Source: Oscillospiraceae bacterium (GTDB taxonomy: Bacteria > Bacillota > Clostridia > Oscillospirales > CAG-272). From it: a stretch of 64,000 nt of DNA. The position numbers were made by a program, and so were the translations under genes. The stretch covers positions 23,808 to 87,807 of the forward strand of contig SVTY01000005.1 of NCBI GenBank assembly GCA_015063535.1, read 5' to 3'. This document shows, piece after piece, positions 13,600 to 55,551 of this stretch. The notes beneath the pieces were generated by a model, which searched no databases, was not told the origin of the DNA, and worked only from the letters and a program-made list of their open reading frames with translations. The first letter of the stretch is position 1. The number at the start of each line of letters is the position of its first letter.

Positions 13600-15591
<1,992 letters not shown>

Positions 15592-15614
15592 GGAAAATAG
15601 AGAGGGGCTTTTTT

Positions 15615-15640
15615 GGAACCTTTCTTGAAAGAAAGGTTCC
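15615..15640. terminator. Perfect palindrome GGAACCTTTCTT-GA-AAGAAAGGTTCC after groEL
   Basis: 12-bp arms, member of the GGWWCC A/T-palindrome group. Confidence 0.6.
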
Positions 15641-15671
15641 AAGCCTCCCAAGAACTTCTGACAAATTTTAT

Positions 15672-15694
15672 GGCGAGAGTATTTTGCTCTCGCC
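15672..15694 (+). terminator. Hairpin GGCGAGAG-tattttg-CTCTCGCC followed by TTTTAT
   Basis: 8-bp stem plus T-run. Either the groEL terminator or a left-end hairpin of the RAYT unit. Confidence 0.5.
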
Positions 15695-15715
15695 TTTTAT
15701 ATCATAACATAAGTG

Positions 15716-16225
15716 ATGAAAATGGATGAATTGAAAAAGAGAAAAACGCCGAGATTGCAAGGCTTTGATTATAATAGTGTAGGTGTATATTTCATAACGA
15801 TATGTACGAAAGACAGACAATGTATTCTTTCTCGTATTGTAGGGACAGGCGTCCTCGACTGTCCGCAAGTTAAGTTGACAAAATACGGAGAGATTGCGAA
15901 GAAATACATACAACAACTGAATGATTTTTACGATCATATCTCGGTTGAAAGTTACGTTATTATGCCTAATCATATTCATATTTTATTGTTTGTAAAGGAA
16001 AACGGACAGTCGAGGACGCCTGTCCCTACAAGGGCAAATAGTGCGTTCGCCCAATTTGTATCTACCTTGAAACGTTTTTGCAATAAAGAATATGGGGAGA
16101 ATATTTGGCAAACTCGTTGCAACGACCACATTATTCGCAATCGACAAGATTATGAGAAACATTTGCGGTATATCTATGAAAATCCATTGCGTTGGCAGTT
16201 TGATACCTTATATGTAAAAGAATAA
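15716..16225 (+). CDS. REP-associated tyrosine transposase (RAYT; IS200/IS605-like Y1 HUH enzyme)
   Basis: About 169 aa. HUH motif YVIMPNHIHILL and catalytic-Tyr helix LRYIYENPLRW. About 35% GC against a roughly 57% background. Start ambiguous (15713/15716/15722). Confidence 0.8.
   Translation: MKMDELKKRKTPRLQGFDYNSVGVYFITICTKDRQCILSRIVGTGVLDCPQVKLTKYGEIAKKYIQQLNDFYDHISVESYVIMPNHIHILLFVKENGQSRTPVPTRANSAFAQFVSTLKRFCNKEYGENIWQTRCNDHIIRNRQDYEKHLRYIYENPLRWQFDTLYVKE
15837..16031. repeat. Perfect 29-bp inverted repeat inside the RAYT CDS (arms 15837-15865 and 16003-16031)
   Basis: ttGTAGGGACAGGCGTCCTCGACTGTCCG vs CGGACAGTCGAGGACGCCTGTCCCTACaa. Each arm is GTAG plus an imperfect palindrome. Confidence 0.95.
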
Positions 16226-16295
16226 AGAAAACATGTCGATTTTTCCAAACATGATCGAAGAAGATCGTACTGCTTTTGATATTTCTCTTGAACTA

Positions 16296-16324
16296 TTGAC
16301 AAATATCTGAAAATATGTTATAAT
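16296..16324 (+). promoter_or_regulatory. Consensus sigma-A promoter with no ORF directly downstream
   Basis: TTGACA-17 nt-TATAAT, exact consensus hexamers. Confidence 0.65.
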
Positions 16325-16495
16325 GCTCTCGTCACACAATTTCATATATTGATTACCCTTGGGGAAACTATATCTTGGCAAAAGATGTTTCTCTCTTTTT
16401 CAATATGCTCTCTAAGGGTAATGAAATTGTGTGACAACAATGAGAGTTACATTCTTTTCAGTGTGTCTCTCATTGAGGCACACTTTTTATTTTTG
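16325..16495 (+). ncRNA. Candidate structured RNA / riboswitch-like leader (unclassified)
   Basis: 15-bp perfect helix 16331-16345/16421-16435 plus 9-bp 16352-16360/16414-22. Outer CTCTC/GAGAG pairing competes with a 9-bp antiterminator (16438-46/16467-75). That antiterminator overlaps a 10-bp terminator stem (16460-84) followed by TTTTTATTTTT. Confidence 0.4.
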
Positions 16496-16633
16496 GGAAG
16501 GAAGTATTGTATGAAAGCAATCAATAAAACATTTGCGAGCTGTTTTTAGCAACGCTCTCAGCACTAACTATTCAGCAATCAAAAACAAATTAAGGTATAT
16601 ATTATAACACAATCAACAACTTTGGAGGAATCT

Positions 16634-17377
16634 ATGAGAAATCTATTTGAAATTGACTATCTGCAAAAAATGAGTGTTCTTCTTCAGGAGGCATTTCAAT
16701 TCAAAAAATACAAAGCGATGCCCGTTGGATTTGCTATTTTGTTGGGAATTTTAATGATCCCTTGGGTGTTGAGCAGTTTTTTATTTGTTGCGTTATTCAG
16801 TGTAGCTACGTTTTTGTTTTCTGTTGTTCTGTTGCCCGTAAAAGCCTTGCATTCCGTTGTTCATAATGAGAGCCAAAATGCCCTGCACGCTACACAATTC
16901 ATACTTTACTTTATCTCTTGGCCGCTCATTTTTTTGTTATATGTTGTACTTGCTTTGTTAGTGCCGATTCTTTTTGTTTTATATGCGGCACTATCTTTGA
17001 CTACCTATATTTGGTCGTTTTGCGGTTTTCGTTTTCATCTGTTCCCCACAAAGGAAGATATCTCTGTCGAAGTGAATGGTACCTATATAATTTTGCCTCT
17101 AATTTATGGGTGTATCGGATGGATTTTATTCATTTTTGTTCCAATAATCCACGGTCTTATTATTTTTGCAGAATTATACGAGCATTATCGGGAAGCCGAT
17201 TTCCCATATTACTTTTTTAATTATGTTTTACCCCCGTATGTATCGCTTCGAAATACATTCAGCATGCTTTTTTCACTTATTGGTTTTTCGAAATCACCCA
17301 AGCCAAAAGATTACGTCGTATACATGGAAGAAATACCCGCAATTGAAGCTACACAAGATTGTTTTGAAGAAAAATAA
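16634..17377 (+). CDS. Hypothetical multi-pass membrane protein
   Basis: About 247 aa, at least 5 hydrophobic segments, about 36% GC. GGAGG 5 nt before ATG 16634. No recognisable motif. Confidence 0.55.
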   Translation: MRNLFEIDYLQKMSVLLQEAFQFKKYKAMPVGFAILLGILMIPWVLSSFLFVALFSVATFLFSVVLLPVKALHSVVHNESQNALHATQFILYFISWPLIFLLYVVLALLVPILFVLYAALSLTTYIWSFCGFRFHLFPTKEDISVEVNGTYIILPLIYGCIGWILFIFVPIIHGLIIFAELYEHYREADFPYYFFNYVLPPYVSLRNTFSMLFSLIGFSKSPKPKDYVVYMEEIPAIEATQDCFEEK

Positions 17378-17416
17378 AAAAGATTGTATTCTTTTTGCAA
17401 ATATGCTTATTGGAAA

Positions 17417-17450
17417 ACAAACGGCAGAGATAGTTTTCTCTGCCGTTTGT
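17417..17450 (+). terminator. Hairpin ACAAACGGCAGAG..CTCTGCCGTTTGT (13-bp stem)
   Basis: Directly downstream of the membrane-protein gene. Confidence 0.55.
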
Positions 17451-17478
17451 CTATAAATATTTATTCAGTTTTCTTTTG

Positions 17479-17508
17479 GTTCCTTTTCTTTTTTAAAAGA
17501 AAAGGAAC
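17479..17508. repeat. A/T palindrome GTTCCTTTTCTTTT-TT-AAAAGAAAAGGAAC (bidirectional terminator candidate)
   Basis: 14-bp perfect arms between convergent genes. Confidence 0.6.
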
Positions 17509-17513
17509 ACCAA

Positions 17514-28972: not shown

Positions 28973-29044
28973 CACCCGCAACGGGAATCGAACCCATAAC
29001 TACCCCTTAGGAGGGGGTTATTATATCCATTTAACTATGCAGGC
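28970..29044 (-). tRNA. tRNA-Arg (anticodon CCU)
   Basis: Hand-folded 75-nt cloverleaf GCCTGCA-TA-GTTA-AATGGATA-TAAT-A-ACCCC-CTCCTAA-GGGGT-AGTT-ATGGG-TTCGATT-CCCGT-TGCGGGT-G-CCA. Encoded CCA. Two G-U pairs in the acceptor stem. Confidence 0.85.
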
Positions 29045-55299: not shown

Positions 55300-55460
55300 T
55301 AATTATGGTAGAGGTGCATGATATCACTGCGTTCCGTCGAGGTCGCCGAACCGTTCGAGGCGAAGGGCAAGGGTGTTGTGCCGAAGGCATACGCAGACGG
55401 TGGGCGTATGACCTGGTCTGACCGATTCAGAGTCGGTAGATTGTCATCATCTTGAATCAA
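55300..55460 (+). promoter_or_regulatory. Lysine riboswitch (L-box) aptamer
   Basis: GGTAGAGGTGC start, GTCGCCGAA, GGGCAAGGGTGTTGTGCCGAAGG, CTGG...GGTAGATTGTCA, in the order of L-box conserved blocks. Upstream of dapA. Confidence 0.75.
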
Positions 55461-55551
55461 AAATTTGATCAAATTTGATGGAGAGCTATCTGTGATTGAA
55501 CCTACAATAAGCATTCTGTCTTTTTATGCTTATATTATAGTACAATTTCAG

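Follow-up and report, generated by a model that had tools for sequence, protein, structure and literature searches.

The stretch of DNA analysed here, called the window in the following, consists of 64,000 nucleotides from the assembly GCA_015063535.1 of an Oscillospiraceae bacterium, a member of the class Clostridia (contig SVTY01000005.1, positions 23,808 to 87,807 of the forward strand); all coordinates count from its first letter. The spacer between groEL and pgsA in this window measures 1.9 kb and holds a RAYT gene, a promoter that is followed by a strongly structured RNA with a terminator (16296-16495), and a gene for a membrane protein. An earlier note, made from the sequence alone, had drawn attention to this RNA as a riboswitch-like element. 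Judged by sequence comparison, the flagged stretch is one copy of a multicopy leader-RNA family that occurs Clostridia-wide and stands outside Rfam 15. We consider it probable that this uncatalogued family, widespread in the class, consists of cis-acting transcription-attenuation leaders.

The window promoter is of the sigma-A type and reaches the full score of 12/12 in a promoter scan (TTGACA-17-TGtTATAAT), with an extended -10 TG besides. Behind it, the 176-nt RNA folds to -64.6 kcal/mol compared to -32.3 +/- 3.6 kcal/mol for dinucleotide shuffles (z = -8.9), none of the 200 shuffles equalling the native value. A repeat scan of the window recovered, next to the outermost helix P1, an inner extension that is 82% complementary (16349-65 / 16409-25), the complementarity of CAATGAGAG and CTCTCATTG, and the pairing of CAATGAGAGTTACA (16438-51) with TGTGTCTCTCATTG (16462-75), which are 86% complementary. 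A terminator scan returned a stem of 10 bp followed by a T-tract, and a small hairpin, ATCTT-GGCAA-AAGAT, is read directly from the sequence at 16372-86. The sole open reading frame (ORF) across the element (16349-16549, 66 amino acids, TTG start) passes through both arms of helix P2 and is not credible as a gene because these arms are hypervariable and differ in length among the copies of the family. The window promoter is predicted to drive a structured, non-coding leader of ~165 nt composed of rod, linker and terminator, the parts of which are listed in Table 1.

Table 1. Features of the flagged RNA copy and of the sequence behind it (window coordinates; PK, pseudoknot; preT, pre-terminator; RBS, ribosome-binding site)
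Feature	Position	Strand	Description
Sigma-A-type promoter	16296..16324	+	-35 TTGACA 16296-301, 17-nt spacer, TG 16316-17, -10 TATAAT 16319-24
Predicted +1 (G, first base of P1)	16331	+	placed by the fixed 6-nt spacer after the -10 hexamer
Rod hairpin P1-P2-P3	16331..16435	+	fold and repeat scan of the window copy, family covariation
P1	16331-45 / 16421-35	+	perfect 15-bp helix (repeat scan)
P2	about 16352-64 / 16410-22	+	inner extension of P1
P3 outer	about 16362-67 / 16388-93	+	
P3 inner	16371-76 / 16382-87	+	loop GGCAA 16377-81
CU-rich 3' bulge of the rod	about 16388-16409	+	
PK 5' strand (P3 loop A's and 3' arm), AAAAGAUGU	16380..16388	+	family-wide covariation
Linker, AACAAUGAGAGUUACAUUCUUUUC	16436..16459	+	16438-51 predicted as antiterminator 5' strand
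preT segment, ACAUUCUUUU	16449-58	+	predicted PK 3' strand
Antiterminator hairpin	16438..16475	+	16438-51 with 16462-75 (terminator 5' arm and loop)
Intrinsic terminator	16460..16494	+	stem 16460-69 / 16475-84, loop 16470-74, U-tract 16485-94
RBS-like GGAAGGAAG and 12-codon ORF MKAINKTFASCF	16497..16549	+	ATG 16511, stop 16547-49
Multi-pass membrane protein, 247 amino acids	16634..17377	+	no family assignment

When the window RNA was compared with related genomes by BLAST, matches of 67-92% identity were found that are confined to the segment from the -35 box through the U-tract. A covariance model, R1, was built from 12 copies; its E-values are rough, as the calibration was shortened. Of 72 genomes from the genus of the window, R1 matched in 63; the 150 matches listed and a further 143 add up to about 290 copies, with up to 12 in one genome, and the genome of the window itself has four good copies. 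Family members are also present in 43 of the 151 genomes (35 of the 94 genera) of the order and in 35 of the 150 genomes (27 of the 106 genera) sampled from the class. According to a pattern scan of named records, checked with R1, the carriers are metagenome-assembled genomes from gut and rumen, filed as Acutalibacteraceae, Oscillospiraceae, Eubacteriales, Clostridia, Ruminococcus sp. and uncultured Lachnospiraceae bacterium. Rfam 15 returned no match over the window RNA, be it at the gathering thresholds or at E <= 10, and nothing over the RNA at eight loci with diverse family members; for the region 15550-16700 it gave only chance-level matches at E <= 10, of at most 24 bits. No Rfam riboswitch class, T-box or Clostridiales-1 RNA is thus matched, and our literature searches yielded no published description of the leader.

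To this extent the claims of the earlier note were borne out. It had described an exact consensus promoter without a credible ORF behind it that drives a structured leader instead, and the 15-bp helix, its inner extension, the small hairpin, the complementarity of the linker and the 10-bp terminator all lie where it had placed them. Its failure to match the core to any riboswitch class known to its author agrees with the Rfam result, and the check that it had proposed, a homology search followed by covariation analysis, led to a recurrent family, found by covariance model, of which the helices covary.

The register between promoter and RNA is kept throughout the family. Exactly 6 nt separate a TAnnnT hexamer from the start of P1 in 90 of 94 copies, and P1 begins with a G in 88 copies and with an A in the other 6. 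The TG extension is present in 87/94, and TTGACA stands at a 17-nt spacing in 59/94, with a near-consensus box in most of the remaining ones. Because the 6-nt spacer after the -10 hexamer is fixed, the start was placed at the base of P1, so that the transcript would begin at the first P1 base pair, G16331 in the window. The outer pairing of CTCTC (16326-30) with GAGAG (16442-46), by which the earlier note had lengthened the helix, is real in the window copy, but with this start its 5' strand would lie upstream of the RNA, and it is not conserved. Duplexes of the upstream spacer with the linker have -2.75 kcal/mol when both come from the same copy (own) and -2.62 kcal/mol when they come from different copies (cross), the own value being attained in 167 of 2000 permutations. 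Permutation counts, here and below, are not probabilities, since related copies lack independence.

Compensatory change was scored in 60 sequences from other species. Standard pairs occupy 97.7% of the modelled cells, compared to at most 60% when the partners are slid against each other. Changes on both sides occur in 9 of the 11 P1 pairs and in 8 of the 10 terminator pairs, and P3 pairs covary as well; for the terminator 99.6% of the cells are paired, with a mean stem energy of about -16 kcal/mol (-16.0 in a set of 40 copies). Several of the pairs are G-U on the plus strand, and thus A-C on the opposite strand, which argues that selection acts on the plus-strand RNA. As alignments produced with R1 are biased towards the structure of the model, P2 and the two long-range pairings described below were tested on raw segments by comparing own with cross duplex energies. 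The sequence of P2 differs almost wholly among the copies and its pairing is retained nevertheless (own arms -12.0, cross -5.3 kcal/mol; 0/5000 permutations). Conserved in sequence are the base of P1, an AUA in the internal loop between P1 and P2, an AACAAU that follows P1, the U-run ahead of the terminator, the terminator together with the U-tract, and P3 as a whole (GGGAAA-AY-UAC-CUU-GGUAA-AAG-GUG-UUUUCY). The U-run before the terminator is invariant across the family; taken together, the apical loop and this run are nearly invariant.

Downstream of the rod, two further pairings compete for common strands. When the transcript is truncated before the 3' arm of the terminator, the linker pairs with the 5' arm and loop of the terminator in 40 of 40 copies, giving an antiterminator (AT) of 10-16 bp with a mean of -12.6 kcal/mol. 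With its own terminator the linker reaches -13.2 kcal/mol, with those of other copies -10.9 kcal/mol (0/5000 permutations). For the set from order and class the values are -11.4 kcal/mol for the native linkers and -5.8 kcal/mol for shuffled ones; in 27 of the 31 cases the native linker has an advantage of over 2 kcal/mol. The second pairing is the pseudoknot (PK), in which the consensus ACAC-UUUUU before the terminator complements the loop A's and the 3' arm of P3 (AAAA-GGUGU); in the window, AAAAGAUGU (16380-88) pairs with ACAU(U)CUUUU (16449-58) over 9 bp with one bulged U. Within the genus, where most copies have this consensus in common, the evidence for the PK is modest: 94.8% of the cells are paired compared to at most 69% upon sliding, 10 further pair types occur compared to 6.4 +/- 1.0 in shuffles, and a few outliers are clearly compensated. 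In order and class it is strong, with 23 unique combinations and 12 distinct 5-mers in the 3' arm (GGUGU, GUGUU, GUAUU, UGCCU, UGCAU, UGUAU, CGUAU, UGCAC, CACAU, CGCAU, UACAU and UGUGU), each of which has its own matching pre-terminator segment (own -6.2, cross -2.8 kcal/mol; 0/10000 permutations).

Since the 5' arm of P3 covaries with this same 3' arm, the latter has two selected partners. Moreover, PK and AT use a common pre-terminator segment, so that the sensor helix overlaps the expression platform. Comparative analysis of the sequences accordingly supports four helices (inner P3, PK, AT and terminator) with overlapping strands, and the mutual exclusion of AT and terminator is supported on both comparative and thermodynamic grounds. 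The attenuator with three mutually exclusive pairings that the earlier note had suggested therefore stands in part: the competition between terminator and antiterminator is retained and covaries in about 100 copies, but CTCTC/GAGAG drops out as the third pairing, and the actual third and fourth competitors are inner P3 and the PK.

A number of other candidate elements were tried and rejected. Pairing of the CU-rich bulge with the linker as an anti-antiterminator gave -7.95 kcal/mol for own and -7.38 kcal/mol for cross combinations, in a register that is inconsistent from copy to copy, and was dropped for the PK. A leader peptide starting at a GUG inside the terminator was put aside, as its reading frame is not kept between copies (by eye). 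CsrA-type GGA sites in the linker are absent from the window and its closest relatives (by eye). For a T-box-like contact of a tRNA 3' end with a UGGU loop the GG is not invariant, variants with GGC, UGU, AGA, UGC and GAU being present. The search for direct repeats of the kind that make up the antitoxin RNA of type III toxin-antitoxin systems gave no repeat family within 16331-16495, the RNA being a single inverted-repeat rod.

Genes follow the RNA closely. In 58 of 99 unique copies an ORF with a ribosome-binding site (RBS) before it begins at most 40 nt past the match end, usually at 9-17 nt, which is a lower bound since several copies sit at contig ends; with 9-40 nt between the U-tract and such an ORF, no room is left for another promoter. 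The 77 ORFs behind the RNA group into about 40 clusters that are unrelated to one another, most of them lacking a Pfam, NCBIfam or PHROG assignment, and searches of Pfam, PHROGs, NCBIfam and 5.8 billion proteins gave essentially no annotation for their products. Among them are 18 small Cys-rich proteins of 57-67 amino acids, 7 lipoproteins and 7 proteins of about 150 amino acids with a weak match to the PHROG 'GTP-binding domain'; further members are diverse membrane and secreted proteins, along with an ABC transporter, XRE regulators and a sigma factor. The Cys-rich family is the commonest (e.g. behind the copies at L041, L033 and L038). It carries the motif ITGVELTPGxPxxCLGNGExGFECCCDECDYFLxCFPEFD and comprises, at 90% identity, over 1200 clusters from public data, all 'hypothetical' and without a Pfam domain.

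In the window, the position at which other copies begin their gene is occupied by the 12-codon ORF, which is probably the remnant of a lost or replaced gene. An 18-nt direct repeat nearby (16516-33 / 16574-91, 83%) hints at rearrangement. The promoter scan found no promoter-like site in the window from 16495 to 16634, and the gene for the 247-amino-acid membrane protein is the likely read-through target of this copy. The link between the RNA and an unknown membrane protein that the earlier note had made is nonetheless incidental, as the downstream genes differ from copy to copy.

From these observations the following switch can be proposed. The near-consensus sigma-A promoter would start the RNA at G16331, and the first ~105 nt would fold into the rod, with P1, the hypervariable P2 and the conserved P3 capped by a GGYAA loop. 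A chain of helices would then decide on the outcome, in which inner P3 competes with the PK (P3 3' arm with pre-terminator segment), the PK with the AT (pre-terminator segment and linker with the terminator 5' arm), and the AT with the terminator. As long as P3 is closed, the pre-terminator segment would be free, the AT could form and transcription would read through into the gene behind the U-tract. Once P3 is opened and the PK is made, the AT would be blocked, the terminator would form and an RNA of ~165 nt would be released. The invariant A's of the loop could act as a toehold for the invariant U-run, and a hypothetical effector (a small molecule, a protein or an RNA acting in trans) would bias the choice between P3 and the PK. 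PK and AT should be unable to coexist, because they have the CAC/AUGCG bases in common and because a 9-bp helix could hardly be spanned by the 1-2 nt from the PK strand to the terminator arm; which way the switch works would follow by parity. The T-rich tract before the terminator resembles the NusG-dependent pause motifs of B. subtilis, a resemblance only. The GGUAA pentaloop bears some likeness to lambda/P22 boxB, a reading that was set aside.

Several points weigh against this reading. The pair counts derive from alignments that had been fitted to the model. Geometry and base sharing are the basis both for letting PK and AT exclude each other and for the sign of the switch, and start site, termination and read-through are all predicted from sequence. 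A Pfam scan of 113 upstream ORFs found no recurrent regulator beside the RNA. No theme unites the downstream genes, which sets them apart from the regulons of most metabolite riboswitches. Finally, about 40% of the copies have no immediate ORF, in part because they lie at contig ends, and some of them stand in gene-less tandem arrays.

By kind, the leader can be set among the transcription-terminating riboswitch or attenuator leaders, as it combines a conserved, covarying structured domain directly upstream of ORFs with an AT that competes with a terminator. It cannot well be filed as a riboswitch in the strict sense, with its incoherent regulon and no known ligand. Leaders with a terminator, an antiterminator and an anti-antiterminator occur in Firmicutes, as in the B. 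subtilis pyr operon with PyrR, and the E. coli trp attenuator has its segments 1-4. The family has in common with these the promoter-proximal leader, the chain of overlapping helices, the intrinsic terminator just before the regulated ORF and the propagation of the state of the first helix. It differs from them in that it has no leader peptide and, by eye and without a formal search, no PyrR-type binding-loop motif, in that its four helices include a long-range PK into the apex of a 100-nt rod, and in its many copies before unrelated genes. In ZTP, preQ1 and fluoride riboswitches, too, a hairpin loop pairs with a downstream platform strand and the pseudoknot decides between terminator and antiterminator; unlike these, the leader has no Rfam match, its PK must displace the inner stem of the hairpin itself, and its regulon is metabolically incoherent. 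With the cyclic di-GMP-I and -II riboswitches of Clostridia, which occur in many copies per genome before diverse, often envelope or secreted genes of unknown function, the analogy concerns the regulon only, as there is no similarity in sequence or structure (no Rfam match). Pneumococcal BOX and Neisseria Correia elements are multicopy structured modules of 100-200 nt between unrelated genes, sometimes with promoters, but the unit described here extends exactly from promoter to terminator, covaries by compensation, keeps a fixed register to the downstream ORF and has no terminal inverted repeats.

A published likeness in Gram-positive accessory DNA is cATTpLS20, the zipper-type attenuator of the B. 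subtilis plasmid pLS20, in which a segment upstream of a long stem pairs with the terminator's 5' stem and its loop and thereby lengthens the stem (PMC13401043). Both systems have a long imperfect 5' leader stem-loop and an intrinsic terminator, two conformations of similar free energy and a trigger that is not known (PMC13401043). In our family, unlike in cATTpLS20, the rod starts at the predicted +1 and the 5' strand of the antiterminator lies 3' of the rod. The zipper feature itself was not found, in that the 7 nt upstream of the rod have no conserved complementarity to the linker region (that to the terminator arm was not computed), and the scan of upstream neighbours gave no association with conAn1 or conjugation operons.

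Within the attenuation model, a more specific reading can be put forward tentatively. The family might be a new riboswitch class for a global small-molecule signal, e.g. a second messenger, in which the rod would serve as aptamer with its apical hairpin invaded by the pre-terminator strand, and of which the large regulon would comprise accessory genes that are orphan and AT-rich, for small Cys-rich proteins, for lipoproteins and for membrane proteins, in uncultured gut and rumen Clostridia. We regard this as possible, though doubtful.

Explanations outside cis-regulation were weighed as well. The terminated RNA of ~165 nt could itself be functional, the copies being stand-alone sibling small RNAs (sRNAs) that act in trans, for instance by pairing of the CU-rich bulge with purine-rich ribosome-binding regions, with the ORFs incidental or secondary. 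Each unit indeed has a strong promoter of its own and an efficient-looking terminator, the minimum-energy fold at full length favours the terminator in about 31 of 40 copies, genomes carry many copies, of which some stand in tandem arrays or have nothing but REP-like DNA behind them, and the bulge, which resembles an anti-Shine-Dalgarno sequence, is conserved in composition. In the window, the CU-rich strand 16387-16404 is even complementary in 17 of 18 positions to the first codons of the neighbouring RAYT gene (15730-15747), a match that could have arisen by chance, the sequence being of low complexity, or could reflect antisense pairing to the mRNA of the transposase. Yet an RBS and an ORF stand 9-40 nt past the U-tract in 58 of 99 copies, which leaves no space for a promoter, and a conserved, covarying antiterminator would be useless in a pure sRNA gene; in addition, the length of the bulge ranges from about 6 to 20 nt, and its specific complementarity to other parts is weak. 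As a full account of the family we therefore hold this to be unlikely. The two roles are not mutually exclusive, and copies without an ORF may act as sRNAs, or the terminated product may have this as a second role.

A further explanation requires no effector at all. The RNA would then be a portable expression module, with the rod as a 5' stabiliser and with terminator and antiterminator setting a fixed, low read-through for horizontally acquired AT-rich genes. It accords with this that the window's own genome has each of its four copies in an AT-rich islet of 1-2 kb (35-44% GC compared to 51% GC for the genome), that the groEL-pgsA spacer is empty in some relatives, and that the downstream genes are mutually unrelated. 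Furthermore, the copy in another genome (G020) is 92% identical from promoter to terminator, over exactly 16294-16494, with unrelated flanks, and groEL is just 81% identical between both genomes. For a fixed leak, however, a weak terminator would suffice, whereas here compensatory change maintains a set of four helices in competition class-wide, a long-range pseudoknot among them; this and the near-invariance of the apical loop and of the U-run before the terminator speak for a decision that is conditional. We think this explanation quite improbable.

That the element is instead a DNA-level mobile repeat, as in the alternative raised by the earlier note of an IS200/RAYT right end, or a MITE-like (miniature inverted-repeat transposable element) or REP-like element with the hairpin as its terminal inverted repeats, can practically be dismissed, for although the RNA is multicopy, dispersed and sharply bounded and adjoins a RAYT gene in the window, a tblastn search with this gene found a homolog at 1 of 88 RNA loci, namely the window's own, the upstream neighbours are housekeeping genes (113 ORFs matching 129 Pfam families, none in more than 3 loci) without a recurrent transposase or integrase, compensatory changes including one-strand G-U pairs indicate selection on RNA, the unit ends at promoter and terminator, and neither terminal inverted repeats nor a target duplication are visible where filled and empty groEL-pgsA sites are compared.

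If the attenuation model holds, a quarter of the sampled Clostridia genomes, mostly from uncultured gut and rumen lineages, would each place as many as a dozen or more orphan genes under a common RNA switch, and the identity of the effector would open a first functional access to a great number of accessory genes that have no annotation, such as the Cys-rich family. The architecture would also be unusual, as a chain of four helices with a long-range invasion of a hairpin apex and with covariation behind every step.

Some further observations concern the family and its surroundings. A second subtype was noticed in the window's own genome (G000:C21:15284-15445, minus strand; C12:10723-10863, plus strand) and elsewhere (L027:1834-1952; L029:292-514). 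It shares with the main family the base of P1, the CGGAGUU linker, the U-run and the terminator and differs in its core, where a hairpin GAAUUUG-GUAAAAAC-GCAAAUUC keeps the complementarity between loop A's and pre-terminator segment (AAAAAUGCA with UGCGUUUUU). Tandem arrays of three to four full promoter-RNA-terminator units, spaced by about 230 to 650 nt, are found at L029 (292-1384), L032 (847-2614) and L227 (1266-1904); in the L029 array an RBS and an ATG with a stop codon directly after it come behind the units, and a gene stands behind the last unit only.

The convergent groEL-pgsA spacer (15592-17513 in the window) is variable in content among relatives (L197, L199, L186, L189, L192). 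It measures 150-200 nt with two terminator palindromes in two of them and about 500 nt in two others; further relatives have other content, sometimes with another copy of the RNA, and in L192 a copy follows groEL in the opposite orientation. The RAYT coding sequence of the window contains a perfect, REP-like inverted repeat of 29 nt (15837-15865 / 16003-16031; GTAGGGACAGGCGTCCTCGACTGTCC), and the REP sequence GTAGGGACAGGCGTCCTCGACTGTCC also occurs behind an RNA copy in another genome (L028, about 330-360). Elsewhere in the window, Rfam places a tRNA on the minus strand at 28973-29044 and a lysine riboswitch on the plus strand at 55301-55496 (59.9 bits).

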